Part shown: positions 1 to 43,569 of the stretch, one piece after another
Numbering within the stretch: the first letter of the stretch is position 1
Layout of the letters: each line of letters starts with the position of its first letter
Assembly: GCA_008632985.1 (NCBI GenBank)
Contig: QPGO01000001.1
Location: 124,001-188,000, forward strand
Origin: Psammoneis japonica
Taxonomy: Eukaryota
Reading direction: 5' to 3'
DNA: 64,000 nucleotides
Notes under the pieces: model-generated
Told to the model about the DNA's origin: nothing
Database searches by the model: none
The model's input: only the letters and a program-made list of their open reading frames with translations
Made by a program: the position numbers and the translations under genes

Positions 1-2214
1 GATGGTCCCGAGTTCGCGCGTGTGACGAAGAGGTTGAGGGATGCGAATGGCATTCCCATTGGGACAGCCAACGACAACCCAATCCTAGATGCTCGAATGT
101 GTCAGGTGGAGCATCCCGATGGTCACACTGCAGCACTTTCAGCTAACTCTATTGCCATGAACATGTTCGCACAGATTGACGAGGACGGAAATCGGCATGT
201 TCTGTTTGACGAGATTGCAGACTTCCGTGCGAATGGGGACGTCCCGGAATCCGATTTCTTTGAAACTGAGCAAGGCAACAAGAGGCGGCGCAGGACCACG
301 AAAGGATGGGAACTCTTGTTCCAATGGAAGGACAGCAGCACTGCTTGGGTTGACCCAAAGGACGCGAAGGAAGGATTCCCTGTCCAGGTCGCCGAGTTCG
401 CCATCCAACACAAGATCTCGAAGGAGCCGGCGTTTGCTTGGTGGGTTCCGCACTTAATGAGGACCCGCAAGCGTTCTATTGCGAAGGTCAAGTCAAAGCA
501 TTGGTTGAGAACCCATGAATTTGGCACACGAATTCCCAAGACTGTGAAGGAGGCACTGGAGCTCGATCGTGCGAACGGCAACACCTTGTGGCATGACACC
601 ATTTGCTTGGAAATGAAGAATGTTCGAGTTGCGTTCGACAAGTTCGAGGGGGACGAAACGGAGCTGCCTCCTGGGCACCAACAAATCGATTGTCACATGA
701 TTTTTGACATCAAGTTGGGAGAGAACTTTTGGCGCAAGAGCAGGATGGTTGCGGGTGGTCACATGACCGACACCCCAACTGCCATTGCCTGCTCCTCAGT
801 TGTTTCCAGGGATTCGGCAAGGATTGCCCTTGCACTTGCCGTGCTTGATGACTTGCAAGTCTTTGCCTGCAACATCCAGAATGCCTGCTTGACAGCGCCG
901 TGCCGAGAGAAAATTTGGACTCGTGCCGGTGAAGAGTTTGGCGCGGAACGCGGTGAGATTGTGATTGTAGTCAGGGCACTCTACGGATTGAAGAGCTCCG
1001 GCGCGGCATTCAGGGCCTTCCTGGCGGAGACGCTTTGTGATCTAGGATGCAAGCCTGGCAAGGCTGATCCCGACGTTTGGATGAGGCCAGCAGTGAAGCC
1101 AGACGGATTCGAGTGCTACGACCACATCTTGGTGTACGTCGACGACTTGCTGTCGATTAGTCATGAGCCGATGAAGACTGTGGATGGTGTCAAGTCGAAG
1201 TTCAAGCTCAAAGACGATAAAGCAGCGGAACCCGAATCCCACTTGGGCGCCAAATTGTCGAAGATGGACCTTGCTGACGGCACCACCTGCTGGACGATGT
1301 CAGCAGAAGATTGCTGCAAGGCGGCGGTCCGGAATGTTGAGGACAAATTGGCCAAGGAAGGAAAACGGCTGCCGAGCAAAGCATGCACACCTTTAAGTGG
1401 CGGATGCAAGCCGGAGTTGGACACTTCGGGCGAACTGGATGCAGAAGGCCTCAACCACTGCCAAGAGCTGATTGGCGTTTTGATTTGGGCCGTGGAATTG
1501 GGTGGGGTCGATGTCATTTTGGAAGTGTCAAATGTGTCGGCTCACCTTGCCTTGCCGCGCATTGGTCACTTGGAACAGGCATTGCATGTCTGTGCATGCC
1601 TCAAACAGGTCCCAAAGCGCCGGGTGGCGTTCGATCCTACGCATCCGGTCATCGACGAGTCTAGGTTCAAGGAGTGCGATTGGTTTGACTTCTGCTGAGA
1701 CGCGCAAGAGGCGATTCCCCCCAACATGCCACCACCTCGAGGTGACGTTGTGTCTGCTCATTGTTTCGTGGATGCCAACCATGCTGGTGACGCATCAACT
1801 CGCCGCAGTCATGCAGGCATTCTGACATTCCTGTGCCGAGCACCCATCATCTGGTGTTCGAAGAGACAGAACACCATGGAGACCAGTGCTTTTGGCGCCG
1901 AGATCGTGGCACTCAAGGTCGTGGTGGAATTTATTGAAGGTCTGAGGTGCAAGCTTCGAATGTTTGGAGTTCCTGTTGAAGGTTCTACAAACGTGTTCTG
2001 TGACAATGAAGCAGTGTACAAGAATTGCTCCATCCCGGAGTCTGCTCTCAAGAAGAAGCATCATTCCATTGCATGCCATCGCAACAGGGAAGCTGTTGCT
2101 GCGGGGACTGTTCGCCCAGCAAAGGAGGATACGGAAACTAACCTCGCGGATTTGTTCACGAAGGTTGTGACTTCGATTCGTCGCAATTTCCTGTTGGACA
2201 AGTTCACTCATTGA
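1..2214 (+). mobile_element. Ty1/Copia (CoDi-like) LTR retrotransposon pol fragment: RT + RNase H, mutated, 5' part outside window
   Basis: Motifs KSRMVAGGH, SSVVSRDS, ALYGLKSSG, VYVDDLL, FVDANHAGD, ETSAFGAE, FCDNEAV, NLADLFTK. ORFs 22..1698 and 1726..2214 are the same frame split by a TGA at 1696-1698 (expected F-Y-R-D reads F-C-*-D). Most conserved Tyr are Cys/His. Confidence 0.95.
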
Positions 2215-2374
2215 ATTGGCGGCAAATGGGGTTTGGATTTTGGGAATCGGGTCGGTGGTGATTTTCTTCCCCAGTGAGGGTTCACACCATGGCCAGCACG
2301 GAGTGTTAATGTGGTTGATTGCATTGGTTGAATTGTGCCTGTCAAGCACGCCCTTGGCTTGTTAGAAACATTTC

Positions 2375-2408
2375 AAGGGGACCGAAAGAAATCCGATGCA
2401 TCGGATTT
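2375..2408 (+). mobile_element. Polypurine tract and start of the 3' LTR of the Copia element
   Basis: aaggggac at 2375-2382 after the pol stop; the same gaggggac tract precedes TG in the second Copia (minus strand, 17420-17411). Followed by a 20-bp perfect palindrome aaatccgatgcatcggattt (2389-2408). LTR end not determined. Confidence 0.6.
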
Positions 2409-3180
2409 AGTTAGAGTGCTGTTGTTAGAGTGCTGTTGGCAATGGCTGGTGCTGAGCCAACCGTTGTGACGTGTCATCGGAAGGAAGCGTTGGATTTCCC
2501 TCCAATGGCGCTCACTTGTTAAGAGCAGTTGTAACAGGCCCAAGAGCATCTTTGGATCATTAGATTGTCATCATGCCAGCACTGTGAGCAGCTGAGCCAT
2601 TCGGCAGCTGGATTTGCTCGCGGACACATGTGCAAAATCTGCGTGGAAACCATCGTACAAACAGACCGCAACTGCGATTTTCCTTGCCATCTGCTCGAGT
2701 GAATGGCAGATGAGTCTCTGTGCAGAGACCATTGCAGGAGCCAAAAGATGTGCATCATGAAATCGGCACTGCTGTTGTTGATCTTGTGAGCCATGTGGCT
2801 CGAGAGCAAAAAGCTGCACTGCTGCAGTGTGTGACAGAGCCAAGGGCACACAACATGTCTGTCTGTGTGCAACAAAAGAAACTGGTGCAGCTCATGACAA
2901 AGTGTGCACAACTGAAATCCAACCCAAACACTTTTGCTCCCCATTTTGCTTGAGGAAGCTGCAGAAGCAGACTTGACATTGGACTGGCCAAAGGCCGGAG
3001 GGTCAAAAAGCTTTGTGGAGCACAAGGGGGGGATGGAGAAGAATGCTCTGGATCTGGAGGCAACCCCAGTGCAACAAGCTCAGCATGTCAGCGGGGTTGT
3101 GGGAGCCTTCAACAAAGTGGAGTTCAAGGAATCCTCAGCAATTGCCTTTCACAAACTTGGCAAAATGAGAGAACAGTGTT

Positions 3181-3208
3181 GGGGGGGGGGGGGGGGGGGG
3201 GGGGGGGT
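3181..3208. repeat. Poly-G run (28 nt)
   Basis: Direct reading. Confidence 0.95.
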
Positions 3209-4543
3209 TGAACAGCTGGCTCTGCTCTTTGAACAAACTCTGTCCATCTCTGTGCATTTGGGGCATTTGTCAGCACAACTTCAACGGATGAAAAAGATGC
3301 AGAGTCTGTCTGCATTTGGGGCATTTGGAGGACACAATTTCAATGGATGAAAAAGATGCAGAGTCTGTCCAGCATTTGCAAACATTTTCCAAATGCCACA
3401 ATTGCATTGACTGAGACAGACTGTTCCAGCGCAAATCCCACACAGGATTGTTCGAACAGCAGCTGCCCAGACTTGTCCCCCAGTGTGTCACCTGCACAAC
3501 TTGGAGCATGAGAGCTGTCCACAACCAACTTGCTGTCATCCCCAAACATGCAACAAGTGCCACAGATCAGGATGCCAAGGTGATGCAGCATGGCACACAG
3601 GCAATGAACTGTTCCATGCAAATCCTTGCAGCAACAAATTTGGATGCAAAAGTTGTGGTTTTCATGGCCGCTTGTTTCTTGGAGAACAAATTGGCTGCAA
3701 ACTTGCCCAGGAAATGGATGGTGATGCCAGTGATGGAAAAACACCCAGCAAGCAAGCAACAAACTGAGTTTGCATTGACATGACAAGTCACTGTGACAAA
3801 CTTGCCAAGAGAGGCTTGGGCGCATCTTTGGGAATCAGCTCCTCTATGTCACTGTGCACTGTGTGGTGCAGCCCCCAACCACACACAGGCTTGGGAAGGT
3901 CTGAGTGGTCAGGCTCCTCAGTCAACATGCACAAAGTGCCATGTCACATCTTGGACAAGGTGTCCCCACCCATTTTTTTTTGGCAAACATCCTTTTTTTA
4001 TTTGCTGGCGGCAAGCCTGATGTTTGTGTGTGGACATGCATGTGTGTCATGTGATGCAATCAATGCCAATGCATTGTCCATGCATGGACTCAGCATGAGT
4101 GAAAAATGCACATGCTCTGCAAATGGGGCAATCTTCAACATGCAGAACCCACAAGCAAAAATGCACCTGCATGCACGCATGTTTGAGGTTTCAAAAAATT
4201 TCACAACTTGTCGAAACGCAATGACAATGGTGACTGTGAACACAACACACTCCATCAACAGCCACAATCTCACCATGACACTGACACACATCAACAGCAC
4301 ACAATTTATTTCACATGTGTGTGCCTCAGTGTGCTTTGACATTGATTGGTTGCAGCGAAAACAGCTGAAATGTCAAATTTTTTTGTCCATCACTTTTTGA
4401 CTGCATGGCTCGACAACAAGCCCATTGCACTCTCACATGTCAATGCTGTTGATTGTTGTGGCTCTTTAAGACAACACTGTGTTGAGAAAACGGTGACTGC
4501 AGAGTCGCCATGGTGTGGTGGTTTCTGGGGTTTCCAGCTGCGG

Positions 4544-4768
4544 CATGCCAATGGCGAATTCAAAGTGCTGAAACTGAGTTGTGCTTGTTGAGTTAGCATG
4601 GCTGCCGCTTTGCGCATCATGTGCCAATCATTCTCAGTGGCGGGGCCACCAGCAATGTGCCAATGGCAAATTTGCAGTGCTGAAAGTGAGTCGTGCTTGT
4701 CAAGTTAGCGTGGCTGCCACTTTGCGCATCATGTGCCAACCATTCTCAGTGGCAGGGCCTCCAGCAAA
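4544..4768. repeat. Tandem duplication, ~113-bp unit x2
   Basis: tgccaatggc...gagttagc...tttgcgcatcatgtgccaa...cattctcagtggc occurs twice; differences are mostly CG/TG/CA exchanges. Confidence 0.85.
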
Positions 4769-5029
4769 AAAAAAAGGATGTTTGGCAGAAAAACCAGGCC
4801 TGCGGGGAGCATTGACCACTTGTCTTTCTTCATGGGTGTGTTGTGCACAGCATGTGCTGTTGCATGCTGCAGGGCCCCATTGCCTGTGGTGCACATGTGA
4901 GCAGGGCCCTGCTGCACTGCCAGGGCTGGCATTGGTCACTGTGTGCATGCACAGCAGGATGACCATTGTGTTTGATGGCTCATGCCATTTTGGGGGCTGC
5001 AGCGAGGTGCGTGGACACTCTTTTTTCCC

Positions 5030-7290
5030 CTGTTCATTGCCACCATGGTGCATTGCACAAAAGCACTTGATGTCATTGAGCAGAAACCAGAGAGTGAGAG
5101 GGTTGTTGGCATGGACATTGAATGGCCCACTGCAAAAAATCACGGGGTGTGGTGGTGTCAAACGGAAAGATGGGAACTGCTCAGCTTGCACATCGTGCCA
5201 AAGATGGCTTGACAAAATGCCTGGTGATTTCATTGGGAAAACAAGACAGCATCCCACCTTGTCTTCAAGCACTCCTGAATGACTCGGAGATTCCACTTGT
5301 GGGCATTGGAGCAACCAGTGACTTAAATTAAATCGGCCACAAATTTGCCTGTGATGAATTTGTGGACATGGCAAACGTTGAGAACCTTGAGACACATGCA
5401 CAAAAGCGACATGTTGCACAGAATGGCATGGTTGGGCTTGACTCACTTGTCAGACTTACATTGCATGACATGTTGGAAAAGCCAGCAAATGTGCAACTCT
5501 CTGATTGGTCGGCATCTCCATTGTCAAAAGAGCAGGTTGAACATGCCACTGTCAATGCCATCAAATCACTTGAGGCATGCCTGAAGATGAAAGAAATGCC
5601 GGATCTCACAACAAGGTTGTTGGAAAAGGACAATGTGGTGAACACCACAGTGGACACAGTTCCAAGTTGTGGCAGCCTGTCTTCCATGGTGACAAGAGCT
5701 GGATGGGGAAAAATTGTTGACGAAGCAACAGCTCCCATTCCAGAGAATTGTGCACCACCTGACATGACGGTTCATTGCACAAGGATCACGTTGAGAGCAG
5801 CGCAAGTTGACAAAGTTGCTGCACCTCATCTCACAGCTCCTGGGTTGAAGACAAGTGCGGGGGGTAAAGCATGCCTTGGCAACTTTGGCAAGACTCCTTT
5901 TTCCATTGTGCTGCTGCTGTCCATGCTGAAACAACACACGTCAAATCTAATGAGATCAGAGATGTCCAATCATGCCATGCCTGACAACAGCAACACAAGA
6001 GCTGTGCTGGCACCAGCACCTGTGCCAGCAAATGTGGAACAAGAAGATGAAGAAGCAACTGAATGTGAGGAGTTTGAGTCAACTGATGAAGAAGATGATG
6101 AAGACATTGACTCCTTGTTGGAAGCACTTGCCATGGCTGACATGGAGTGCACAAGGCAATGTGAAGCTTTGGCGAGAGGTGCCCAGGCTGGTGAAGTGTC
6201 CCTGTCACATCCTCACCTTGACAATCCACCCGAGACCAAAGAAATGCAAGACTTGCTCTTGTCCGTGAATGGAGATGGTTTTCACAGCATTGAGAGGCCC
6301 AAAATGCCGGTCTGGCACATGTTCTAAAAGGCTTTAAAAGTGGCAATTCATGATGCCAAATGTGAGGGGAACCAAAAGAAGCCACAAGAAGCAAAGCAGG
6401 CAATGGTCAAAGATGGTTTCACTGAAACCAACATTGATCTGGAAATGCATTGTTGAGTGAAATTCTTCCAAGACTGTGTTGACCGTCGGAAGCTGCCGCC
6501 AAGACAGCTGCACTGGTGAGTCCGTGCTGTGTGTGTGTTGTTGGGCGACAAAACAGACAGCGAGACAGAGCAGCCACTTTTCAACAAGAGAACATGGAAG
6601 GAGGCAAATCGTGTTCTGAAAGCCATGCTTGCCGGGTGCGTGTCCAATCCTCCTGGAGTGCCATTTCATGCGATCCGCCTCAACAGCTCAGGAGAACCAA
6701 TGAAGAACAAGTGCGGGTTTGACCTGATGAACTACAACCAGGGCACGAGTGATGCAGAGTCAACACACAATCAAATTGTCACAACTTTCGGTGTGTGGTG
6801 CACCGGGGTTGAAATGTCGGATTGTCTTCTGAGCAAACATCGGCTTCATCACAATCACAAAAGCTCTGAACCTTGGTGCAAGGGCTTTCCAAGGATTGGT
6901 CATTTTGACACTTGGCTGATGGATCGGGCACAACTCCTTGTTGAAGACAATCCTGAATGGACCAATTCCGGTGATTGCAAAACCACACCAGAGAGCTTTG
7001 GTGCAATTCCGTTGCACAGCCAGGAGCTTGCAAACACCATTGAAGATGTCCAGCTGAGGGAAAACTGGGGGAGGAAAACAAAGTCAGATTGACAAGAGAT
7101 CATGTGCATCTTGCGGCGGCCATGGGATCAAAACTGCTGTTCTCACCTGTTTTTGGGGTGGGGGAGATGAGACTGTTCTCCAGGCTTTATCCAGAGTTTC
7201 CTTTCGATGCCCACAAGTTTAGCATCAAATGAACAAAGCTCTGCAATGGTGTGACAATCTTTCCAAAGCTCAAGGTGCACCTGAACATGT
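5030..7290 (+). mobile_element. Degenerate DNA-transposon gene: WRN/DnaQ-type 3'-5' exonuclease domain fused upstream of a Mutator-like transposase region
   Basis: Exo motifs VVGMDIEW (ORF 4982) and LSDWSASPLSKEQVEHATVNA (YAAxDA motif with Y->H; ORF 5362). Then DGFH, PLFNKRTWKEA, SNPPG and QGTSDAESTH (ORF 6529), resembling DxxH...GTNxxExxH of Mutator-like transposases. Multiple frameshifts and stops. Confidence 0.65.
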
Positions 7291-7327
7291 GTTGCGATTG
7301 GCAGAAATGAAGCCAAAGGACCAAAGA

Positions 7328-7745
7328 CTTGAAAACTTGAACCAAACACTGCTGTCGGACGCATCCAATGGAGACTCAAGCAATGCTGCGATGGAACTCG
7401 TTGATGATGAAAATGATGAGACACCAAATGGCAAGGCCAGTTCAGTGGAAGGTCCATCTCAATGTCAACATGACCCAACATGTCACAACGCACATTGGCC
7501 TGTCCCCTTGGCACTGCGCAAGGATGCAATTCAAGGTGCAAGAACTGTTTTTGAAGCTCTTGAAAACTTGAACCAAACTCTGCTGCCGGTCGCATCCAAT
7601 GGAGACTCAAGCAATGCTGTGATGGAACTCATTGATGATGAAAATGATGAGGCACCAAATGGCGGGGCCAGTTCAGTGGAAGGTCCATCTCAATGTCAAC
7701 GTGACCCGGCATGTCACAACGCACATTGGCCTGTCCCCTTGGCAC
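7328..7745. repeat. Direct duplication, ~187 bp at 231-bp period
   Basis: cttgaaaacttgaaccaaac...cccttggcac at 7328-7514 and 7559-7745. Confidence 0.9.
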
Positions 7746-8294
7746 CGCACACTCTCAACTTGCCTTGCAGTGTGCTCATCACAATGACAAAATGCCAACC
7801 ACAGTTGGTGGAGTGCAGATGTGTCCTCTGAACCATGTGATGCCTGCTGGGGAAGAAAACCAAGCAACAACAACAAGAAGAGGTGAGCACAGTGGCAACA
7901 CCAGGAAACAAAGCAGTCATCAGTGCATGCACTGCATCCAACTTGGGGGAGACAAGGCCCTCAAATGCAAAGGCCGACACCCAAGGCCAGGACAAGAGAA
8001 ATGTGAGCACTTTCAAAGTGATGGGAGCCCACAAAACTTGCAGCATGCAGAGAACAGAAATCAAAACAAACACGTGCCATGAGCATTCACAACAATGGGA
8101 AACAACAGAGTTTCTCTTTGCTTTTTCTCTTTTCTTTTCTCTTCTTTCTTTTTCTTTCCTTTTTCTCCTCCCTCTCTTCCCTCTTGGTCTAAAATGTGCT
8201 CCAGCAACATGGCACAAAACCATTTCCAGCACGAAGATCAAATGTTGTGCCTGAAGGAACGATCGGCCCTTCGTGCAAAACTCATGTAGAAATT

Positions 8295-8720
8295 CTTTCT
8301 GTTTCAACATTGTGCTGTTCAAGAGTGCCACAGTGTTGGCTCATTTAAAGCAGTGTGCGCACAAGAGTTGTTTGCCAATGGCATGCAATGTGTTGGCATG
8401 TGCAGAAAGAGCAATGAAAGCACAATGTTTGGCACAAATTTTCTTTTCCTTTGGCAGTGCAGTGTTGCTTTTAAAGGATGACCACAGGCAGATGAATGCT
8501 GCTGCTTGCACACATGACTCTCTCTCTCTCTCTCTCTCTCTCCAGTGCACCATCCTCATTTAAAGATGTTTGTGAGGGTGTTTTGCAATGTTGAGACAAG
8601 CTGCACAAGTCTCAAACGGTTTGTCTTTCTGTTTCGACATTTTGCTGTTCAAGAGTGCCACAATGTTGGCTCATTTGATGCAGTGTGTGCACAAGAGTTG
8701 TTTGCCAACAGCATGCAATG
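8295..8720. repeat. ~330-bp repeat unit containing (CT)n, block 1
   Basis: ctgtttcaacatt...gagtgccacagtgttggctcattt and aaggatgaccacaggcagatga...(ct)n recur at ~8300/8630/10245 and ~8474/10076/10392. Confidence 0.85.
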
Positions 8721-10074
8721 CTCCAGGACATCACTTTCAAACAGCCCAGAGACCACCCCACCAGCCCAAGGATGGTCCTGTGGAGCATGCCATTTGCCAG
8801 ATCCTCACGGACCGGCTTTTTTCCCATCAACAGCCTCCATGATCTGGAGCAACAAACAATCCACACGGTTGCTGCCCAAGAGTTGCACGGTGTTGCTGAT
8901 GCCTTCCACAACTGTGGCTGCATTAGAAACCAGTGTGACAGAATGAGAAAAAATGGATGGAGGCCAACTCTGCAATGCTTTTTGCTGCTCGACAGAATGT
9001 GTCAATCCAACATCGACTGGCTTTGACAGCTTGTGCTGCTGCCGGCATTGTGAGAGGTGCCAACAAACAGATGCCATTTTTCAATCAAGTCTGCCATGCA
9101 GCCTGTTGCTCTGTTGGACACAGTGGCAAATCCTGCAATGCCAAGTCTCAAGTCCTTCCGCGGGGATGTCACACATTGGCTCCTGCTCTCGTCGCCACCT
9201 TGACTGGCATCCATCATGCCATTCCCAATGTTGTCTCCAATGACACCTTGCAGCATTTCAAGCTGCCTCTGTGGTGCAGCCCCAGTGGCCTGAGTCTCAA
9301 AATCATTTGGGTGCTTTTCAAGGCAGGCATCCTTCATGATTTTGGTTCTCTGGATGCAGAGAAATGGAAATCACAGCATCAGCAGAGCCACAATGAAAAG
9401 AACATGCAAACAACACTGCCTTCAATGGACTTGCCTCATGCATTGTGCAGCTTGCATCGCATGGGCAGCAACAAATGGCACAAGAACACATCCATCCAGT
9501 CTGTGTTCCAGCTGCGTTTGCACGCTGCCGCCATCGCACCCGACATTTTGAGATTGTGGGTCTTGGCGACAGCATGCTCCTCTGCCAGTCCTTGGAAGTT
9601 AGCCTTTGCAGGCCTCTCCATAAATTCTGCCAACAGATTGCGTTTGTTTTCTGTCATCATCACACTGCTTCCTTTCAGTGCGGTGAAGCCGATGTCATCT
9701 TCAATGCGACCCTTGCCCTGCAGCTCAACCGACGTCTGCTCCGGTGGTGGTTGAGCAGACGCTGCAGATTTGGGATGTCTCTCATGCCTGTGTTGACAGC
9801 AGAATGTTTGTTGGGAGCTGTGACATTGTTTGTTGAGAGCATGGACAAGACGAGCAACGCCATTGTCCATCGTCAACCTTGAGGAGAGTGGATCGAGTGA
9901 TTCTGGTGTTTTCCTTGGTCTGTCAGTCATCAGAATTGTGTGTGCTGAGAAGTCCGCAGGTTCTACGTGATGCCAAAACCGTGCCACTTTTGTTGAACTT
10001 TTGTTGAGGTTGAGTGAAAAATGTGTGGGAATTTTGCTGCTTTTAATTGTGACAATTGTCAGGCATTTTGCAGC

Positions 10075-10116
10075 AAAGGATGACCACAGGCAGATGAGTG
10101 CTGCTGCTTGCACACA

Positions 10117-10158
<42 letters not shown>

Positions 10159-10530
10159 CTGTGCACCATCCACATTTGAAGTTGTTTGTGAGGGTGTTTT
10201 GCAATGTTGAAACAAGCTGCACAAATCTCAAATGGTTTGTCTTTCTGTTTCAACATTTTGCTGTTTGAGAGTGCCGCAGTGTTGGCTCATTTAATGCAGT
10301 GTGTGCACAAGAGTTGTTTGCAGAAAGAGCAATGAAAAGCACAATGTTTGGCACAAATTTTTTTTCCTTTGGCAGTGCAGCACTGCTTTTAAAGGATGAC
10401 CACAGGCAGATGAATGCTGCTGCTTGCGCACATGACTCTCTCTCTCTCTCCAGTGCACCACCCAAATTTAAAGTTGCTTGTGTGGGTGTTTTGCAATGTT
10501 GAAACAAGCTGCACAAGTCTCAAATGGTTC
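10075..10530. repeat. ~330-bp repeat unit containing (CT)n, block 2
   Basis: Same unit and orientation as 8295-8720. Confidence 0.85.
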
Positions 10531-12864
10531 GTGCATTCAACTGTTCTCTCTGCAAATGCGTCAACAAAACAAGGACAGGATGACATTGTCGGTGCCACAG
10601 CGGAGAGAAAAAGTCGTTTTGCATTCATCCACATCGCAGCAGCAGCATGGCAGTGGCCCACTTTGTTTGTCAAGTTTGGCCAGTTGTGCTTCCAATTTGG
10701 CACATGGCAGGAGGAATTGACATTCGTTCCATCACCACCACCATTGGCAGTGCCAGCGCCCTTGTTGTCACTGCCCTTGTCATCATTTTTCTTGTTGTCA
10801 GTGTTTGCGGGTGCCAAAGGAATGGTGGGTGCAAAGACATCCACATCTCCAAAGTCATCATTGTTGTCCACATTGTTGTTTTCATGATTCGTGCTGCTCA
10901 GCGGCACCGTCATTGTTGTTGCCACTCCCATCGTCATCGTCGTCATTCTTCTTGTCGCCATTGTCATTGTTCGTGGGTGCCGATGGAATGGTGGGCACAA
11001 ATGTGTCCACATCTTCAAAGTCATTGTCATTGTTGCTTGTGGCAGCACCCGGCACTGTGGGCAGGACAAAGACCTCTGCCGAAGGAACCGCAGGGATGTC
11101 CCCCTTGGGTGGTGGTTGGCAATTGATTTCTTGATCGACATTTTCTTGTGTCGCCACGGCAGCTCCCAACAAGCCTGTTCCACCGGCTGCTTGAACACTG
11201 CATCCGACCGGTGTTGCCATGGGTTGTGCAGGAGCACTGTCAGATTGAGACACGTGAGGTTTCCAATCCACTTCAAACAATTTGCAAATCTTTTCCAAAT
11301 GCATTTCCACCAAGGCTGCTGCAGGTGGTTGAACCGACAATTTGGAAATGACACGTTCATTCAAAACACCACCAACATTGTTCAGGGCAGTGTCTTCAAA
11401 GTCTTTTCCACATTTAGAACAAAATTGTTTTTCAATGAGTGGGAGCTCAGCAATGTCCACACAGTCACACACCCAAATGAGTGTGGATGCACACTGCACC
11501 AAATCTGGTGGACATGTTTTGGAATGTTCCAGTGATTTGATGCATTCAGCAAGCAGCTCACATTCGAGTTGCCTTCGGCACGAATTTTTGCCAATTCCTC
11601 CTTGGGTGGATCTTTGCTCAACATGACAGCGACTGCACGCATTTGTTGTTTGGTGACGAGGAAAGACAAACAAGTGCACTCAAGTGCACTTGATGTGCAC
11701 CCTTTTTTGTGCACCAGATGACCACGTAGAATTCTGCATGTGACTTCAGTCGCAAGTGCACTTTTCAGTCGTAAGCATGCTTTTTAGTGTGCTTTGTGTT
11801 CCATTCGACAAGTCCAACACAGCCATCATTTTCAACCCAGTTTCTTTCTCCCAGAGTTCTGCAACGCAGTTTTCTGTTGTCCGCAAAAGTGCAGGTGGTC
11901 AATTGCTTTGGTTGTTTGGCACTGTTTTGACCGCAACCAGATCATTGAAAAAGTGAAGATTCTGGAGCTTGGTGCATTTTCTGCGCATTCCTGCGCAAGT
12001 CGTGGCTTGGTCGCGAATGGCAAACTAAGTGCACCTTGATTTACAATTGTTGAGACTGGTTGATGCATCAATTTAAACCCATTTTTTTCTTCAAAAAATT
12101 CCATCATGTGTCACACAATGTGATGTGTGAGTTTTCATTGTCAATTGCTGTGGCCTTTTGGCACTGTCTTGATTGCAACCAGATCACCCAAAAAGCAAAG
12201 TTGGAGGTTCTTGGTGCATGTCCCACTCATTTCCACGCAGGTGGCGATTGATCAATTGAGTGCACTCTGTGTGTCACTGTGCTGAGTTTCTGTGCAGAAA
12301 GTGTTGTTGACGTCCAACACTGAGTCCCATGGAAACTCAGCAGAAATTCCTGTGCATTGCACACAACCGCACACAACTCAACCGAAATTGTCCATGGTGC
12401 AAAGTGCAGCCAACAAGGTGACTGCAGCCGCCATTGTCTGCCTTGATTTTTTCCCTGCACATCAATGTTTTTGTTTGTCATTTTGTGCATTTGTCACATT
12501 TGCATCATCTTTCGTTGTTTGTCTGATTCATTTGCCGTTGTTGCTGCAGTGCTGTTTCCGCTCTGTGTGCATGCAACACAAATCGCGCAAACATGTGGTG
12601 TTTCCACGCTGTACAAAATTTCTGTTGAATTCCACGTGTTCCACATCTTGCATTTGATTTGCCTTTCCCACCTTGTAAAGAAGCGCTGCAGCACTGCTTG
12701 GTGAGTGAAAACCCAATTTCTTCACAGTTGCACCATGTGGGCTGTTTGTCTGACCAACCTGTCAAATGTGGCACCCCAATTTTGTTTTTTACAGAGGACC
12801 ATCAGACACAGCCACAGACACTCTCATTCTTCCAGGGAAAGGAGAGCACCTGTTGCCACCACAA

Positions 12865-15800
12865 TGGATGGGGATGACTCACAAGATGATGGGAGAAGCT
12901 TGTCCCAGCATGAAGAATGTGCTCTGGACAGGAATTTTTTCTGCCAGTTTCTTTTGTCACAAGCAAAAATGGAGCAGATTCAGTCTCAGCAGAGGGCGAC
13001 TGAAATCTTCTGGGTGATGGAGGCTGAGGTCGGCTCCAGGCACACCCAGCCCAGGGTTCACCATGCAGAGGACAGGCACCCCTCAGCTGCTGCTTCTGAG
13101 GCTGTCAAGCCCCCTGTCATGAGCTCAAAAAAGGCTGTGGTGGAAGAGCATGAGTTTTCAAACTGCAAGATGCAGTGGCGGGCCAAAGGCTTGGGTGAAT
13201 TCTCCCCCACAACAGGCCGGGCAATGGGCACTTGCTCAACTGAAAAGTCCACAGATGGCTTGAGAAAAGTTTGCAAATGCTGCATGGGTGTCTTTGTTTG
13301 CTCCCTTTGTGGAGAGTTTCTTGAAAGGCCCCGGCAGCCTTGGACAGGAAGGAAGAAGTTTGGGTCACCACTCCCTCCCAAGCTGGTGTGCCCCAATCAT
13401 GAGCAAGAGTCAAAATTGGAGCACAAAGAGTGCACCTGCCTGCTGACCTGTCAAGAAGTCAGTGCCAACTCTTGGCTCATGAGCCACAAAGGGAGGCACA
13501 ACACCCAAGACCCCCACCATCGAAGCTCCCAATGGCAGCACAAGGAAAGCTTGTGGAGCTTGTTGTCAGAGCTGCTCCTGAGTTGACTCCAGCACAGCTG
13601 AGACTTGGGGCTGCAACCAGGCCTCGAGTGTCACAGATTCATCCAGCTCTTCACAACAAAGACCATGTGAAAAACATGAGGAAGAAGATCTTAAAGGAAA
13701 CAGGGATGAGCTCCACCATTGCCAGCCTTGTGAACTTCCAAAAGGAAGTGAACCAGAGCTTCATTGTTTCGGAGCAGCTCACCACAGATGATGCTCACAT
13801 TGTCATGCAAGACCAAGACATGATTGACATGCTGAGAGAACCAGCATCACCCATGCAAACCAACTCTGTGGAGGGATTTGTTGTTGATGCAGACTTCCAG
13901 AGGCAGATCAATGTCACCTTCTCTTTGCAGTTTGATGCAATGTTGCAGCAGTGGGCCCCAGTCTGCATTTCCATCTTGTTTGGCAAAACTTCTGCACACT
14001 GCAAAGCCCACTGGCGCAGGGTGCTTCAGTGCTGCCAGGCCAACACCTGGGATGATTTTTTGAACAACTTCCAAGGAAACACAAGCGACTTTTCTGATGC
14101 CATTTGAAATGGCTTCTTTGCAGCCATGCAGGAGCTTGCACTTGAGCACCATGACAGGGAAGCCACAGATGAGGAGATTGCCCAGTTTTACAACTTTTGT
14201 GACGTTCACTTTGAGAGGTCCCGCATGAGGGTGGCCAGAAACTCTGCTGTTGACATTCCAGACAGGGAGGATGACTTCAACCACCATGTCAACAGCTTGA
14301 GGGGTTTTGGCCAAGGAGACTTTGCTCAGTTTGAAAAGTCCTGCAAGCTGCTCATCAGATCTTGCCCAAATGCCAAGTCATGGCTGAAGTTTGAAAAGTC
14401 CTGCAAGCTGCTCATCAGATCTTGCCCAAATGCTGAGTCATGGCTGAAGTGGTTTCTCAACCCAAGGAGGGCAAGGATTTTCTTTCCTGCACGCGCAGGC
14501 AGCTGGATGAGCTGCAGCAGCAGAGGCATGAAAAGCTCTGCACAGACACAAATGCACAGGAAAATGTTGGCAAACAGTTTCAGTGCAGTGCACCAAAGAC
14601 CAATTTGACCATTGGAGAAGCAGTTCTGCATGCTTTCAAGTTCTGCAATGCGAATGTCTTTGACAGAAAGGCAGCAGCCAGGGGAATTTCACGCCATTGT
14701 GGAGCTTTCAAGACCATCCAGTCAGGCTGCAAGAAGCCCAAGAGCAAAAGAAAGCAAGGGAAAAAAACAAATGATGGAAGAGCACCAGACACCACAAAGC
14801 AGCTGACAAGGCCAAAAAAGAAGCCTGCACCCAAAAAGACGCCAGGAGAGGCAGCAAAGAAGCAGGCAGGAGGCACCATGAAGCAAACAAGGATCAAGTT
14901 CAAGACCCAATCATCAAAGAAAACTGCACCCAGGCATGCTGTGACCTCATTCCAAGGCATCCCATGGAATGTGCCCAGCAAAGGAGACCATCCTGGCATC
15001 AACAACACTTGCAGGCTGGACAGCTTGTTGACTTTGCTGTTCTCACTTCACAAGCAGCAGCTGATGAAAAAGCCAATGGTGGAGCTGGCTGATCCAGACA
15101 ACCTCCTGTCCAAGACATTCAGCTTGATGGAAAAGGGTGAGTTTGATGATGCCAGGCACCTTTGGGTGAGTGACAATTCTGTTCTCAAGGACATGAATCG
15201 CGAAATCAGAAAGAGCCGGTTTGCCAAGTTCAACATGTTTGGGTCACTCTTTGAGGTTTTTGGCCCACCAGTCAGTCCAGGAGCTCCCTTCCCAATGAGC
15301 CAGTCATTTCAAGCCTGCTTTGATTTCTTTGAAAAGTGTGTTGCAGGTGACTCTTGGTGTCCTTCATGCTTCTCTGATGAGGATGAAGATGGGCGTCCAA
15401 GGAAAAAGATCTTCAACACATTCCCCATTTCAGAATTTGACAGCGCCAGCCACTGCCTCCAAACTTGCCTTGAGAGTGACTTGCAGAAGTGTGGGAACTT
15501 TCAAGGTGGTGTTGGTGAGGGTGAGGATGCAGTGATGGTTGCAAGTGACACCCCAGAGGAGAGGCAATGCTGCAGATTCCTGAACACCACTGAAAAAGTC
15601 ATCACGAAGTTCCCACACCTGATGGTTTTTACAAGCAACCCAAAACCCGGTTTTTCACTTGGAGATTTGGAGACAGAGTTTTCCCTTTGTGGGAAACAGT
15701 TTGGCTTGAGAGGGACCTTGAATGGAGATGGTGGAGTTCACTTCACTTCATGCATCAGAGGAGAGGCAAGCTGGATCTTTTGTGATGGAATTGGGGATGA

Positions 15801-16396
15801 TTTCCCTGTCTGGGAGAGGTGGATGTTTCGCGAACAAGACCAGGTTCTTCAGGGAGAGCACAGCTCCCAGATGGCCATGGCCACAGTGTGTGAGGTCTCA
15901 GACTTGGAGGTTGGAGAGGAGAACATCAAGCCAGGGGAGCAAGAGCAAAGCAAGCCAGGAGAGGAGGAAGAGCATTTGGAGATTGGAAAGGAAAGCAACA
16001 AGCCAGGGATGCAAGAGCAAAGCAAGCCAGGAGAGGAAAAGCAAGGCAAGCAACACAAGAGAAAGAGAGTGGCCTTGGGCAATGGTGCAATCAAGTGGAA
16101 ACAAGTGGCCAGAGCAGTCAATCAGGGAGAAGGGCAAGAAAGGGGGGAGATTGCCAACATGCAGGGGCTGCGGCCAGCTCCTCTCTCAGAATGAAAACAG
16201 GCTTCTCTGCGCCTTTCATGAGAAAAAAGGACACAAGCTCAAGACAGAATGGCAGCTGCACTGCAGGCTGACATGCATTGATGGCAAATTGGATGAGAGC
16301 AATCTCTTCAAAAATTGTTTGAAAAAGGGGAGCACCAAGCAGTTCGAGACCTTCAAGGGCAGCTTCAGCAGGCTGCCAAAAATGTGCAGCATGTGA
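12865..16396 (+). pseudogene. MULE transposase: GCM-like zinc DNA-binding domain + DDE core + USP-like cysteine-peptidase region
   Basis: KCCMGVFVCSLCG...RP...CPNH...C...HKGRHxHPRPP (GCM-like); MQTNS, TSDFSDA, FCDVHF (CxxH), TDTNAQE (catalytic E), NDGRAPDT; NNTCRLDS and GVHFTSCIR...WIFCDG. Spread over frameshifted ORFs 12705, 13430, 14126 and 14440. Confidence 0.78.
14328..14450. repeat. 60-bp tandem duplication inside the transposase
   Basis: Two copies identical except CA (14374-75) vs TG (14434-35). Confidence 0.95.
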
Positions 16397-17411
16397 TTTG
16401 AGGCTGAGGTTTTCAAGTTTTCTGCAAACAACAACTCTTTTCTTTGTCCAATTTAGAACTGCTTTGTCTGCACATTGTTGGCTTTTGTCATGTTCATTGG
16501 AGCCTTGTCCACTGCTTGGCGCAATGCATTTCATCATTTGCTGGCACACACCTGCATGGAATGTATGGCACAGTGCACAACACACTTGCAAAATTTGTCC
16601 ATGCTGCAGCTGGTGTGGTCCCACGCAGAAATGCATGCAGGGTCATGGTGCACTCAAGTGCACTTGAAGTGCACTTGACAAGGTGCACTTTTTTGACTTT
16701 TCTTTTTGACGACGGCCATTTTTTTTGTTGGACGCAATTTGAAAACGACTCGATGCCATTTTTAATTCTGCAGGAGCAGAGTTTGAGAGAGAAGGAGCAT
16801 GAGAGAGTGTGTGCATGAGAGAGCGTGCATGTGTGCATGCATGTGTTGCAACAAAAGCATGTTGGCGATGGCAACAGCATGCGTGTGAATTGCAACAATG
16901 GTTTCACAATCGGTGCTTGACTCATGCAACAACATGAAGAATCAACCCCCAGCATGTCAATGCCGAGCATGACAATGATGTGTTCCACTCACGCAGCTTT
17001 AATTTCTTGGCAGAAAACCCTCCAAACATGGCAGTTGTTGTTGTTGTTGATTTGTGCTGGCGTTGTTGTTGTTTTTCAAGTTTTTTTTTAGTTGTGGGAT
17101 TCTTCAGCGAGGTGATGATTTGTGGCTGGAATTGCATGACTCAAAAATCGTCTGCGAACGCAAGGCGAATGGATGCAAAAAAACTCTCTCTCTCTCTCTT
17201 GCTCTGTGTCTGCCGCATGCTCTCCATTGAACAAATTACCCCGCACAGTGGTTGCGTGCTCTAGAGGGTAAAGACCAAAACTAAAACATGTGACATGGTG
17301 CCTCCATTTCTCAGAATTGTGATGCTTGTCTCGGATGGACTTCGGTCTGCTCATTTTGCCGACGTGGGGCACACATCACTGAATTTCACATCTCCACATG
17401 GCAAATTCTTC

Positions 17412-18690
17412 AGTCCCCTCAAGTCAATGAAGTGGACAATGAATTGGCTTGATCCAGTTTGCTCTCTCTGGCCATGTTTGGCCATGCCAATGTGACAAGG
17501 AAACCCCAACAACCTGCTCTCTAAACCCCATGGTGCATGAGGGTGCCGGTGCAATGCCAAACCTTGGTCATTGTTGATGTTGTGCAATGTCATGCCTGCG
17601 AGTCCATCTCACTTGATGCCACCACACATGATCTCAGTCGCAAGATCAGCTGGGTTGCATTCTGATCAAATGTGGATGCGCTCCAGCTCTGGGTGGGACC
17701 TCGCACTGCTGCACTGTGACATCAACAGTTTTTTGGATCGCGTTGCATGTCGCGCACGTGCATTTCTGCATGTCACATTCTCCGAAATTGTTTCATGCTC
17801 CCTGTTTTGCAAAGCCAAAGGCTTTCCATTTTCAACATTTGTGAGAATGAAAATGCACTGGGTGTGTTCTTCAATGTCTGAAGAACACACCCGGGCAAAC
17901 TGTCAATGATGTGCTCCAAGTGTGGAGGAGGAAATGCATTTGCAAAATTGCCTCTTTTTCTGTTGGCGATCATTTGTGTTTTCATTGCAGCATGAATTTG
18001 CTGTGGAGCTTGCACGTAGAATTCTGTGGGCCAAATGTCTCATGCAGCCCCACCTTGGACTGGAACCCGTCTGTGTCCAGTGAGTGACTCACCCATTGCT
18101 GCCATTTCTCTCATGGTGTGGCGGCATGCTGATTTCGACTTCTTCTTCAAAGTTGACTCTGGGCTTTGGGTGTTGTGGACAACTGACATGTTGTCACCAC
18201 AAATGTGCGATGGACCACTCAGCAGTGCACCCATCATTCTAAGCTCATGCCTTGGACCTCGCAAAGCTTCCATGCCCTGCTTCACAGCCACAAACTCAGC
18301 TCCAAAGACTGAGGTCTCAATGGCACTCTGTCACTCAGAAAACCAGGCAACCAATGCCATGTTTAAATGTGCAAAGCAGCCCACACAGGAGCATCTTGTC
18401 AGCTTGTCATTGGCATGGTTGGAATGCACAAACAAGTGTGGGTCAACATCTTCACCCAGAGCTTCTGGTGCATTGGGCAGAACAGCTTCCTTCACATCCC
18501 CACAAAATGCCTTCCTGCCGCATTCCTTGAAGTCAGACATGTCCATTTCCGGGTGTGTCAGATCAAACACCAGCCTTGCATCATGTCTGGCCTTGAGGCA
18601 TCCACACACATGCAGGATGGCCTCAAGATGGCCCTCCCTTGGCACAGTGAGGAATTGGGCAAGCTGTGAGGTGTGCAGCTGGAAGCGCTT
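17412..18690 (-). mobile_element. Second Copia (CoDi-like) fragment: RT end, RNase H, PPT and LTR start; interrupted by a MITE
   Basis: PREGHLEA, RLVFD, FVHSNHAND, ETSVFGAEF, ICGDNMSVV, PESTLKKK, GH|I*SECNPADLAT. PPT gaggggac followed by TG at 17412 on the minus strand. Confidence 0.9.
17674..18072. mobile_element. MITE copy A (399 bp, ~26-bp TIR, 2-bp TSD gt), TA-depleted
   Basis: Ends ggatgcgctccagctctgggtgggac / gccccaccttggactggaacccgtct. Excision with one TSD restores the Copia RNase H frame. Termini are homologous to 46956-47347. Confidence 0.88.
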
Positions 18691-19574
18691 GCACAGCAGG
18701 TGCCAGGCACCCTGCAAAAACACCAGAGTTGTTTCTGAGCAACTTGTCTGAGGCCATTTTGTCTTTTGGAGCCAAAGTGCAGGCATGGCATTGGTGGTGC
18801 CAGAGATGTCTCAAAACCATGTGAACCAATGAGCCAACAAAAATGCTTGCGCATGATGACGCATCAGAGGAAGGAACTGTTTGGGTTCAGTGTCCATGTG
18901 GGTTTCTGCTTGTTTCCTGCAGCTTTTTGTAATTGTCATTTAGGTTGTGCAACTTTTAATGTAGATTTCCACCTGCTTCCACTGGCACAAGTGCATGCTG
19001 AGCTGTCCAGAGAATGCCATCATTTTGTTCCCTTGTGTGTGTGCCACTCACACAAGGGAATTGTCAGACTGAAAGAAAAGCCACAAAGTCACCTTGGCCC
19101 AGCCAGCCCTCTCTGCCATGTCTGCACAGGATGGGCATTTTGAGCCAAAGGCCATGGACAAGCAAAGGTTGCTCCATGCTAAAAACACAACACTTGAAGA
19201 AATTGCTTTTGTGAAACACATGCTGGAGCTGGGAGAAGTTTGTGACAAGGAGCTCTCCAGAAAAGAAGAATTGGTGTGTGCTGCAGCTGCAGCAGAAAGT
19301 TGGCTGCTGCATGACCAATGTGGGCAAACTTGAGTGGCCAGATCCCACTCCTGTTGAATCTCAGGCACAAGCTCATGTGAAAGGAGGTGGCCAGAAAACA
19401 CCCACCTATCTGGTGGCAGCATGCAAGCAAGTGCGGTGCCTTGCTGGAAGAAGATCAAGCTGAAACCAAGGGCTTGTGCAATGCCTCAAGAAGAGGCCAA
19501 AGTCAAGGAAGGGAGATGATTTGACACCAAACCCAATGCACCACCGCAACTGCTAATCCAGCATTTCATGTCAT

Positions 19575-21150: not shown

Positions 21151-21921
21151 CCGGGAGACACCGCTTCATGCCAATTGCACACACTTCTGCTGCACCTCCA
21201 AGCAGGGTTTGCTGGAAGTGTGGGTTAGCTGGCACTGGTGTTGCTGGGCAAAGGTGCAACAGCACTTGAAATGATTGATTTGGTTTTTTTTGACACTGCA
21301 ACCACTCCTGCCAGAGTCAAAGAATGACATCCCAAGAAGAAGCTGAATTCAAAGATGGGTGATGACCCGATGCCACAGCCGCTCCTGCCAGAGCCAGAGA
21401 GTGAAAACCCTGGTGCCCCACCAGCCAGGCAACAGCAGCATCTAAGATGTGCTCTCCCACCTGTGTCATGAGATTCAGCTCCAGGTGGGACCTTGTGCAG
21501 CTGGACTGGTCTTTGGACATGTGCCACATGTTGCTTGCTCACACTTGTGTGCATGTTCTCCCACAAAATTTCCCGTGCTCCTTCCTGCTCTGAGGGGGGG
21601 ACAAAGGCTTTTTAATCCATGCATTTGTGAGAGTCAAAATCAGCCAGGTGTTGGTTGTGGCATCTGTTCTGTCATGTTCTCAATGGGAGTCATTCGGGCC
21701 CTCACAGCCATTGTGTGTAAATTACATGGGAGAGCGCCAGAAATGGCTGTCGAAATCGGCACAAAACGTAGAGTAATCCGTAATCATAACCACACTTTAC
21801 TTTCTTGGCTGCCCCCTCAGACTCCCCAGAACTCGCAAACGCGCAAGCATTTGTATATGACCAATAAAGCAAGGGCCAAAATAGTGGTTTGTTTGAAAAG
21901 ATTGACTTTACTGTTAAGCAG

Positions 21922-24570: not shown

Positions 24571-24619
24571 TGATGCTGGTTGTTGCTTCGATTTGACAGC
24601 CTGCATTTTGCCGCCCCCA

Positions 24620-32830: not shown

Positions 32831-32849
32831 GAGATGTTGGTCCTTTGGA

Positions 32850-33780: not shown

Positions 33781-33789
33781 GGGTGCTCT

Positions 33790-34520: not shown

Positions 34521-34799
34521 TCAATCTATGTGGAGTGACAGCCGCCGTGGCCATGACTTTCTCCACCCACTCTCATCAACAGACATCTTTCACTGCAAAT
34601 TCTGCAGCAAATGGTGGCTCCTCTCTGTGGCAGCAAACAATGAAAACCATTCTGTGGCAGTCATCTAGAGCAAATGCACAGAACTTTTCAGTCATTTGGA
34701 TTTAATGGTTTGACACATTTGATGCACTGGCACTCCTGGAAAACTCAACGTGACCCACAACAAAATAACCCCGATCTGCACCCTTCTCTGTGACCCTCT

Positions 34800-38300: not shown

Positions 38301-38399
38301 GAGTTTTCAAAAGCAGCGCATGATGAAATGAACTTTTGGTGAAGACAAGCACATGTGAACAATTTTTTGTCAAGCTTTGTGTTGCTGACATCCAAATCC

Positions 38400-43512: not shown

Positions 43513-43569
43513 GTGGTGATGAACGAGCCAAAACCTGCTGCAGCGCGCATAGTGAGAATAATAATAATA

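Follow-up and report, generated by a model that had tools for sequence, protein, structure and literature searches.

The Copia fragment and the two states of the window

The DNA analysed here is a stretch of 64,000 nucleotides from the diatom Psammoneis japonica (contig QPGO01000001.1, positions 124,001 to 188,000), hereafter the window, which begins inside the pol gene of a Copia-type retrotransposon and continues through blocks of repeats with host genes between them (Table 1). Its first element has lost most of its TpA dinucleotides while remaining rich in CpG, and our results support the view that TpA loss precedes and is independent of CpG loss. The protein encoded by positions 1–2214 matched RVT_2 (Copia-type reverse transcriptase) in Pfam with an E-value of 4.8e-13 and 49.7 bits (cut-off 31.6), a domain likewise present in the relatives P0003 and P0007, in which no integrase domain was found by Pfam at E <= 0.001. 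A phmmer search of 1.8 billion representatives returned 16764 matches, the top one showing 50% identity and collinearity over residues 5–564, and in full-length relatives (~1360 residues) the match starts at residues ~600–680. Frame 1 comprises 737 codons with one internal and one terminal TGA, and since the remaining five frames carry 10–29 stops each, it is a real, nearly intact coding frame; it aligns to its relatives without frameshift, and conserved columns reach residue 696. The original prediction, made from the letters alone, of an element almost open over 2.2 kb with one TGA and no frameshift was thus borne out.

The composition of this frame differs markedly from that of its relatives. 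Tyrosine accounts for 3 of the 565 residues ahead of the stop (0.5%, vs 3.0–4.8% in 31 relatives), so that the three Tyr counted earlier stand while the denominator given with them (558 residues) does not, and cysteine reaches 3.5% (vs 0.6–2.2% in relatives); among all 737 codons, Tyr is encoded by four TAC and no TAT. TpA occurs 20 times, with an observed/expected ratio (o/e) of 0.17, and CpG 136 times (o/e 0.87), in agreement with the CpG richness previously claimed from two strings (gttcgcgcg and one more), both of which were found. A single-protein metagenome scan with the Copia fragment provided 80 loci for comparison, in whose matching region TpA o/e ranged from 0.49 to 0.87 (none of the 80 below 0.49) and CpG o/e from 0.21 to 1.33. 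The TpA density of these relatives predicts ~112 TpA in positions 1–2214, of which ~18% are left, and the CpG density is 0.061 per bp vs 0.046 in the 80 relatives. Along the metagenomic contigs bearing these loci, TpA o/e fell below 0.2 in a single one of 1354 windows, compared with 77 of the 128 windows of the present stretch. The CpG-rich composition extends beyond the reading frame: CpG counts are 3–9 per 100 bp as far as position 2700 (1 in 2501–2600) and 0–1 from 2701 onward, and loose contig ends gather at 2700–2702 and 2748, marking the junction of a repeat unit. Note that the summed contig depth at 2676–2782 was ~19200, against ~300–2800 in the adjoining bins, indicating a very high-copy short segment at the junction between the Copia unit and the repeat that follows it.

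The composition profile, computed over 128 windows of 500 bp, is sharply bimodal, and switches between blocks occur within ~500 bp. Repeat blocks have a TpA o/e of 0–0.14 (~0.05), a CpG o/e of 0.03–0.64 (~0.26) and a TpG/CpA o/e of 1.5–2.5, whereas host-gene blocks have a TpA o/e of ~0.3–0.7 and a CpG o/e of ~1; expressed as densities, repeats retain 0.12 of the TpA and 0.26 of the CpG of host genes. CpG o/e was below 0.5 in 67 of the 77 windows with TpA o/e <0.2, and CpG was also normal in 41 of the 44 TpA-normal windows. The combination that characterizes the Copia fragment (TpA o/e <0.2 with CpG o/e >=0.75) was restricted to 3 of 128 windows, all within positions 1–2000, and the opposite one (TpA-normal, CpG o/e <0.5) to a single window of the 128, which straddles the block border at 21501. 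The earlier statement that more decayed neighbours have lost both dinucleotides was therefore right for the depleted blocks, but these were not shown to be Copia elements, with the exception of one piece: in the window, the fragment at 18091–18678 was the only other Copia-like sequence found, the other depleted blocks being satellites, unclassified repeats and a pseudogene. It should be noticed that the TpA o/e of the host genes (0.3–0.7) is itself rather low, which may stem from TpA avoidance of the ordinary kind or from the same process leaking weakly across the whole genome.

We consider it probable that the fragment belongs to a dead copy of a multi-copy Copia element, hit by a TpA-specific mutator ahead of CpG decay. 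Positions 1 to ~2700 would be the 3′ part of such a copy of a Copia-type retrotransposon in a diatom genome, and a TpA-specific process would convert TpA to TpG or CpA (A:T to G:C transitions on either strand) in chromosomal DNA, hitting certain repeat or silenced blocks and leaving the intervening host genes unaffected. About four fifths of the element's TpA would thereby have been removed, with conserved Tyr changed to Cys or His without stops or frameshifts, while ordinary CpG decay, presumably by deamination of 5-methylcytosine (5mC), may so far have taken ~5% or more of its CpG. The adjoining blocks would have gone through both processes, both of which end in TpG/CpA.

TpA loss on both strands and its 3′-neighbour rule

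The conserved residues of the Copia protein first distinguish mutation from composition. Using as conserved columns those shared by >=60% of 24 relatives covering the protein, the 18 conserved Tyr columns now hold 3 Tyr, 10 Cys (TGY), 4 His (CAY) and 1 Phe, so that 14 of the 15 lost Tyr have become TGY or CAY. In contrast, the other conserved columns are kept at a level comparable to that of ordinary database relatives (244 of 294; 0.77–0.84 in the relatives), including Trp 12/12, Gly 28/29 and Asp 22/24, and non-Tyr residue classes ranged from 58 to 100%. Selection against UpA or CpG was considered as an explanation and ruled out, as conserved Tyr are replaced and the changes go beyond synonymous ones. 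Selection against UpA would not swap out conserved Tyr, and therefore the TpA loss of the Copia fragment is mutational, not compositional.

At the scale of the window, depleted windows have lost 0.0283 TpA and 0.0436 CpG per bp relative to normal ones, i.e., 0.0719 in sum, and have gained 0.0669 TpG+CpA per bp; the match between these figures means that the two losses account for the gain. The G+C content is near equal in depleted and normal windows (0.487 vs 0.479) because the TpA and CpG processes push in opposite directions.

TpA survival also depends on the flanking bases. The NTAN classes were counted strand-symmetrically in depleted and host windows, the host-gene windows standing in for the ancestral repeat composition, and survival was 0.59 for TTAA, 0.40 for CTAA, 0.21 for CTAG, 0.04 for GTAC, 0.01 for ATAC and 0 for ATAT. 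A model in which the T-A-N of each strand is struck independently, at one of four rates set by the 3′ base, fitted the 10 NTAN classes (Pearson chi2 2.9, 6 degrees of freedom) and outperformed a single rate (likelihood-ratio chi2 176.9, 3 degrees of freedom), with cumulative doses of 0.26 for A, 0.70 for G, 1.66 for C and 2.76 for T. The 3′ neighbour thus matters, in the order TAT > TAC > TAG > TAA, and within the Copia fragment, with the 80 relatives as baseline, observed/expected TpA was 0.44 in slow, 0.18 in middle and 0.09 in fast contexts. The per-strand target would accordingly be T-A-N with the preference T > C > G > A; on the opposite strand this becomes N-T-A, ranked A > G > C > T, and consequently the sequence cannot tell adenine deamination from thymine modification.

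The context rule bears directly on the proposal that an over-active T:G to C:G mismatch repair guarding methylated CpG erodes TpA as a side effect, which would explain TpA loss and CpG retention together. It would let TpA drift to CpA or TpG with CpG preserved, and would resemble the very-short-patch repair to which the depletion of CTAG in Escherichia coli is ascribed. Here, CTAG and TTAA are among the best-surviving contexts and the adjoining blocks also lose CpG heavily; moreover, such repair needs a prior T:G mispair at TpA and would be limited by polymerase errors, which falls short of the ~1000-fold excess reported for TpA hypermutation in the chlorarachniophyte Bigelowiella natans (bioRxiv 10.64898/2026.01.13.699255). 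We therefore judge this explanation very improbable.

The two strands are affected alike. Pooling the Tyr columns of the Copia fragment, the second Copia fragment, the IST1 pseudogene and four database proteins described below gave 29 Cys and 29 His, and depleted windows contain 0.111 TpG and 0.108 CpA per bp. Changes made at the RNA or cDNA level before integration, in the manner of ADAR or APOBEC enzymes, could be read into the excess of Tyr to Cys (10) over Tyr to His (4) in the 1–2214 copy, but this excess is not significant (binomial p 0.18), is predicted for TGY from TAY by the context model and vanishes in the pooled columns. In addition, satellites, direct repeats and the IST1 pseudogene share the signature, which shows that the process works on DNA in place, and pre-integration editing of retroelements is no explanation for affected satellites and a pseudogene; this alternative is already contradicted by the data and we give it hardly any credence.

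As an example of such non-coding targets, 11 monomers of the 187-bp satellite contain 6 dinucleotide columns mixed for TG and CA (at least two of each), whereas each of the seven other transition-diagonal pairs yielded 0–1 mixed columns. The most extreme values of the window, both for TpA o/e (0–0.06) and for CpG o/e (0.03), were found over 32001–34000, within the second group of tandem arrays. Across the ~570 aligned bp of the 600-bp direct repeat pair there are 20 TG/CA double differences, 11 CG versus TG/CA differences and no TA, where the 20 doubles may derive from TpA or from CpG, no CG/CG or TA site being left to tell the two apart, compared with 5 TG/CA double differences in a host paralogue pair of 2.6 kb. 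The overlapping tandem pairs at 32856 and 33778, which are self-aligned, were left out of this pairwise comparison. Both satellites (24611–27287 and 31755–34523) have periods of 180–194 bp and higher-order periods of 363–376 bp.

In the IST1 pseudogene (a Vps4 regulator of the ESCRT-III pathway), no Tyr is left at the 6 conserved Tyr columns, which now hold 2 Cys, 2 His, 1 Ala and 1 Thr, and 3 of 9 conserved Arg are kept, 3 others being now Cys through CpG decay; its N-terminal part is missing or scrambled. All its species-named relatives are diatoms (Grammatophora, Seminavis, Nitzschia, Thalassiosira and Cylindrotheca). The decay of this host-type gene shows that the mutator acts beyond foreign sequence. 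Within the pseudogene, which may have been captured by a mobile element, positions 11105–11314 resemble 47458–47678 at 70% identity.

The remaining content of the window was surveyed with Pfam. Among 20 open reading frames (ORFs), FG-GAP and other beta-propeller (Kelch-type) domains were found in the host genes, together with two sub-threshold matches only, and among 112 further ORFs of the depleted blocks IST1 was the sole match. In the older block at 2701–21500, Pfam thus gave IST1 and a sub-threshold DNA_pol_A_exo1 at 5332–6327 and nothing else; a 585-aa ORF at 14437–16191 has one relative, which is unannotated. The host block contains a segmental duplication (49081–51718 vs 56582–59215, 81% identity) in which TpA and CpG are still normal. 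Short TpA- and CpG-depleted inserts of ~0.5–1 kb lie inside this block at 46501–47000 and 47501–48500, which suggests that small repeats are targeted one by one with little spread to their flanks.

The CpG process has its own context dependence, since the depleted/normal ratio of CpG was 0.16–0.30 with A/T flanks and 0.47–0.61 in CCGG or GCGC, i.e., a weaker loss in the latter. Within the older block, 7328–7520 and 7559–7751 form a 93%-identical tandem duplicate in which 7 of the 13 differences are CG versus TG/CA and none lies at TpA; at 7328–7751, CpG decay is still running after TpA has already been exhausted.

Table 1. Features of the 64-kb window (positions within the window; a dot marks features without strand)
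Feature	Position	Strand	Remarks
pol fragment of Copia type, with reverse transcriptase and the part downstream of it	1..2214	+	Frame 1; TpA-poor, CpG-rich; begins left of the window edge
Single internal stop TGA	1696..1698	+	Probably CGA before a CpG transition
3′ non-coding tail of the TpA-poor, CpG-rich Copia unit	2215..2700	+	Possibly long terminal repeat (LTR); unit end ~2700
Older repeat block, TpA and CpG both lost, mostly unclassified	2701..21500	.	TpA o/e 0–0.14, CpG o/e 0.03–0.64
IST1 (Vps4 regulator, ESCRT-III) pseudogene in depleted block	10885..11679	-	Pfam Ist1, E 2e-19
Second, more decayed Copia-like fragment	18091..18678	-	tblastn 45% identity, E 3e-42; local CpG o/e 0.16–0.19
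~187-bp satellite, TpA/CpG-depleted	24611..27287	.	Tandem Repeats Finder period 187, 13.4 copies; TpA o/e 0–0.1, CpG o/e 0.03–0.19
Further tandem arrays, ~180–194 bp	31755..34523	.	Most depleted stretch of the window
Direct repeat pair of ~600 bp in depleted block	38374–38969 and 39659–40260 (38374..40260)	.	80% identity
Host gene block, tandem FG-GAP repeat family	41098..60028	-	TpA o/e 0.3–0.7, CpG o/e ~0.9–1.4
Four FG-GAP_2 proteins	41098–43701, 50513–53158, 53468–55633, 58004–60028	-	Pfam E 1e-20 to 1e-32

Order of the two losses and the other copies of the family

The conserved Arg columns of the Copia protein provide the counterpart of its Tyr columns. Of 23 such columns, 18 hold Arg (9 CGN and 9 AGG) and none of the 23 holds a product of CpG decay (Cys, His, Gln or Trp), while 15 of the 18 conserved Tyr are gone, which upholds the original prediction that TpA conversion outpaces 5mC deamination and does not arise as its by-product. 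In the same way, the CpG o/e of the fragment (0.87) is far from that of the adjoining repeat blocks (~0.26), although a value as low as in older elements could have been found. With rough remaining fractions of ~18% for TpA and 95% or less for CpG, the TpA process would have run, as a rough inference only, 10–35 times as fast as the CpG process in the lineage of this copy. The order of the losses shows that the mutator reaches an element either earlier than 5mC decay of any note or independently of it.

The same signature occurs in other collections. Four Tyr-poor, Cys/His-rich Copia proteins (P0053, P0103, P0108 and P0137; Tyr 0–0.9%), from Logan, ENA and JGI assemblies, are among the 150 best phmmer matches and keep 0–1 of 9–14 conserved Tyr; their Arg columns have changed to Cys, His, Gln or Trp in 3/14, 2/7, 1/7 and 6/10 cases, respectively. 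Relatives that lost CpG without TpA loss also exist elsewhere (L056, with TpA 0.81 and CpG 0.21, and L009, L063 and P0086). Like the near lack of TpA-normal, CpG-poor stretches in the window, these sets of proteins and loci speak for TpA loss as a process of its own, separate from 5mC deamination.

Other copies of the family were obtained as contig pieces of a public sequencing run (X1) that contains the window, and were compared with positions 1–3200; a second run (X2) yielded no contigs there, and none of the runs listed for the window was of RNA. The 714 pieces comprise 114 with at least 99% likeness, 173 at 95–99%, 235 at 90–95% and 192 below 90%, and the differences described here are the best supported 40 of 216 places. 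At 7 of these 40 (334, 410, 598, 1696, 1922, 2559 and 2749), the present copy has TpG or CpA where most others have CpG, so that at least 7 CpG have been lost, and the reverse pattern (CpG here, TpG in others) was seen at one of the 40, place 1992. The internal stop belongs to this class: both contigs at 1696 read C, giving CGA, and because of this the stop most likely arose from CGA to TGA, in a column where relatives have Pro (10), Gly (5), Arg (4) or Asp (2). TpA was retained here but lost in other copies at 4 of the 40 places (477, 1395, 1933 and 2307), and 6 TG/CA double differences between copies lie among the 40 (1398/9, 1456/7, 1855/6, 2209/10, 2753/4 and 2974/5).

It could be argued that a long-read base-caller misread modified bases in repeats, such as N6-methyladenine at TpA and 5mC at CpG, taking them for G and T, and that the DNA itself still has its TpA and CpG. 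Such miscalls would yield TA to TG/CA together with CG to TG/CA, limited to modified chromatin, and the sequencing platform is unrecorded. However, an exact 465-nt contig of run X1 spans the depleted positions 2719–3183, and the X1 contigs, up to 315 kb long, were built from exact 31-letter words, arguing for accurate reads. Furthermore, the four Tyr-poor Copia proteins were drawn from three independent collections (Logan, ENA and JGI), decay of other kinds is seen in the IST1 pseudogene and in the older Copia fragment, and, according to the preprint (10.64898/2026.01.13.699255), mutation calling in B. natans relied on Illumina data. An artefact of this kind is, in our opinion, exceedingly implausible.

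A more serious alternative is that the TpA-poor state was inherited, a single episode of hypermutation having struck one ancestral copy, which segmental duplication or mobilisation in trans later multiplied; the present copy would then never have passed, at its own site, through a young state rich in both TpA and CpG. The 714 pieces with 114 at >=99% likeness are in line with it, and among the 40 best-supported differences other copies have TpA at one place only. On the other hand, the 6 TG/CA alternatives and the 4 TpA kept only here, again among these 40, mean that some TpA decay was independent, after the copies split; contig depth is an uncalibrated copy number, and inheritance would alter the timing of the loss but not the order of TpA before CpG. 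We regard inheritance of the TpA-poor state as somewhat unlikely.

Several observations weigh against the reading that we prefer, a dead Copia copy hit by a TpA mutator ahead of CpG decay. The depth of a 146-nt piece with one difference is 255, compared with 25.5 for the exact flanking piece, i.e., ~10 times higher, and this depth of near-identical TpA-poor pieces implies that at least part of the TpA-poor state was copied and not gained per insertion; at place 2541, one of the 40, other copies have TpA that is lost here (CpA). Much of the TpA loss may thus predate the last duplications and may not have occurred in the 1–2214 copy itself. The window may have been assembled from the very run used to confirm its sequence, and the context analysis takes host-gene windows in place of the true ancestral repeats. 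In the window, the TpA-poor, CpG-rich state is that of one element, and whereas the rate was measured in B. natans, as the preprint reports, the signature here is known from sequence alone.

The order of the two losses may also be real but uninformative about age or rate, if the Copia family is unmethylated, or not yet methylated, while its neighbours are methylated, and if the two processes are triggered independently. Among TpA-depleted windows, CpG o/e takes values between 0.03 and 0.95 with no evident break, and in the 77 depleted windows the correlation between residual TpA and CpG counts is weak (Spearman rho 0.36, p 0.0014); furthermore, methylation depends on DNMT5a in the diatom Phaeodactylum tricornutum, as reported in PMC9998398. 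The CpG-rich domain, however, stops exactly at the element boundary near 2700, and the present copy has already lost 7 or more CpG sites kept by most other copies, including that of the stop codon. The more decayed Copia fragment at 18091–18678, which kept none of 3 conserved Tyr columns and 57 of 92 other conserved residues (vs 244 of 294 in the main copy), has lost its CpG too. Lack of methylation in the family seems to us a distinctly unlikely explanation of the order.

Nevertheless, CpG retention could reflect lack of methylation rather than youth, and the original proposal of an internal clock, running from TpA and CpG both kept to both lost, is not supported. TpA is saturated, being near its floor in every depleted block, and it therefore acts as a switch, not as a scale; the TpA-poor state is multi-copy and found with CpG in a single element, and the window has no LTR pair for dating. 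The B. natans process was active in only 11 of 15 lines and is thus episodic (10.64898/2026.01.13.699255). The greater residue loss of the second Copia fragment, accompanied by CpG loss, appears to agree with a greater age, but this hint is weak because the two Copia fragments belong to different families.

Possible agent and comparison with known systems

Regarding the mechanism of the TpA mutator, the agent would most likely be an enzyme directed to silenced chromatin, and candidates could be, on an equal footing, a DNA adenine deaminase (such as the ADAT2-like protein suggested for B. natans) and a thymine-modifying activity that recognizes N-T-A. Whichever deaminase or thymine-modifying enzyme is put forward has to show the T-A-N order found here (T > C > G > A). 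The sequence establishes the signature, its symmetry between strands, its confinement to blocks, its context order and its lead over CpG loss, from which an enzymatic origin, direction to chromatin, a role in defence and the enzyme's identity are inferred. In its boldest form, which we advance tentatively and find possible though not favoured, diatoms would possess a chromatin-directed T-A-Y mutator (in the simplest case a DNA adenine deaminase) that serves as a defence of newly silenced repeats, resembling repeat-induced point mutation (RIP), outpaces CpG decay and is shared across the Stramenopiles, Alveolata and Rhizaria (SAR) supergroup, the TpA-then-CpG sequence ordering the insertions. 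If this were true, the signature shared with Bigelowiella would be that of an old defence across SAR, repeat insertions in genomes of this kind could be ranked first by their TpA and then by their CpG, and the mutator, reading T-A-Y on either strand, would disable proteins through Tyr to Cys/His and similar changes while leaving their frames open.

Conversion of TpA to TpG or CpA cannot make stops and removes TAA and TAG, which makes heavy hypermutation compatible with an open frame; indeed, TAA and TAG together amount to ~3.0 per 1000 triplets in depleted windows vs 14.5 in normal ones. As the TpA process makes no stops, an open frame is here a weaker sign of youth. For annotation, TpA-depleted repeats hold long open frames with Tyr-poor, Cys/His-rich products, which gene finders and protein databases take up, and public collections already contain, as predicted proteins, what hypermutated elements encode (four among the 150 top phmmer matches).

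TpA-specific DNA hypermutation has been reported once so far, in a 2026 preprint on a chlorarachniophyte (10.64898/2026.01.13.699255), and its footprint over ~60% of a 64-kb diatom window suggests that the process is neither peculiar to a single alga nor confined to inserted viral DNA. According to the preprint, two integrated viral regions received 231 of the 302 nuclear mutations found in mutation-accumulation lines of B. natans, and 230 of these 231 were A to G or T to C, those transitions all lying at TpA; the rate was ~6e-7 in the inserts vs 3.5e-10 per site per generation, and the effect was seen in 11 of 15 lines only. In B. natans, reverse transcriptase and DDE transposase were overrepresented among TpA-poor coding sequences, TpA o/e was negatively correlated with CpA+TpG, and Mettrop et al. 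proposed an ADAT2-like deaminase as agent, their Discussion citing a preference of ADAR for a 5′ U (10.64898/2026.01.13.699255). The words CpG, diatom, trinucleotide, context and stop codon do not occur in the preprint's main text, and the 3′-neighbour rule, the balance of losses and gain and the lead of TpA loss over CpG loss are new here, although the supplementary mutation table of the preprint could contain data on the 3′ neighbour. Word-matching literature searches, whose coverage leaves out subscription journals, found no report of TpA hypermutation in diatoms.

The CpG decay of the adjoining blocks (CG to TG/CA) has a known basis, since diatom transposable elements are cytosine-methylated and, in P. 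tricornutum, loss of DNMT5a de-represses young elements, as PMC9998398 describes. Such decay cannot yield TpA loss, and it has barely begun in the Copia fragment, where 82% of TpA is gone. Fungal RIP resembles the present case in that repeated or foreign DNA is hypermutated in place, block by block and by transitions only, and elements are inactivated. In contrast, RIP converts C:G to T:A mostly at CpA and raises TpA, whereas the direction here is opposite and no stops are created; no RIP-type rise of TpA was found in the repeats of the window, where TpA stands at 0.12 of host-gene density. Host paralogues at 81% identity are also untouched here, although this identity may lie below any duplication threshold. 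Deaminase-type hypermutation against mobile elements is likewise known for APOBEC3 and ADAR in animals, but these act on cDNA or double-stranded RNA before integration and with strand bias, while the changes here are symmetric (29 vs 29), include satellites and prefer a pyrimidine on the 3′ side.

The closest likeness is that to B. natans, as far as the preprint describes it: in both systems, A:T to G:C transitions are confined to TpA, affect both strands and occur in particular non-host blocks. The differences concern the host, a diatom (Stramenopiles) here and a chlorarachniophyte (Rhizaria) there, and the extent, with 77 of 128 windows at TpA o/e <0.2 compared with <=0.43 for the lowest 5% of windows reported for B. 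natans (10.64898/2026.01.13.699255). Relative to the viral inserts of that report, the depletion here also covers satellites and a host-gene pseudogene, and it coexists with CpG decay. Judged by its sequence pattern, the signature described here appears to match the TpA to TpG/CpA hypermutation of B. natans, in a new lineage and to a far greater extent.

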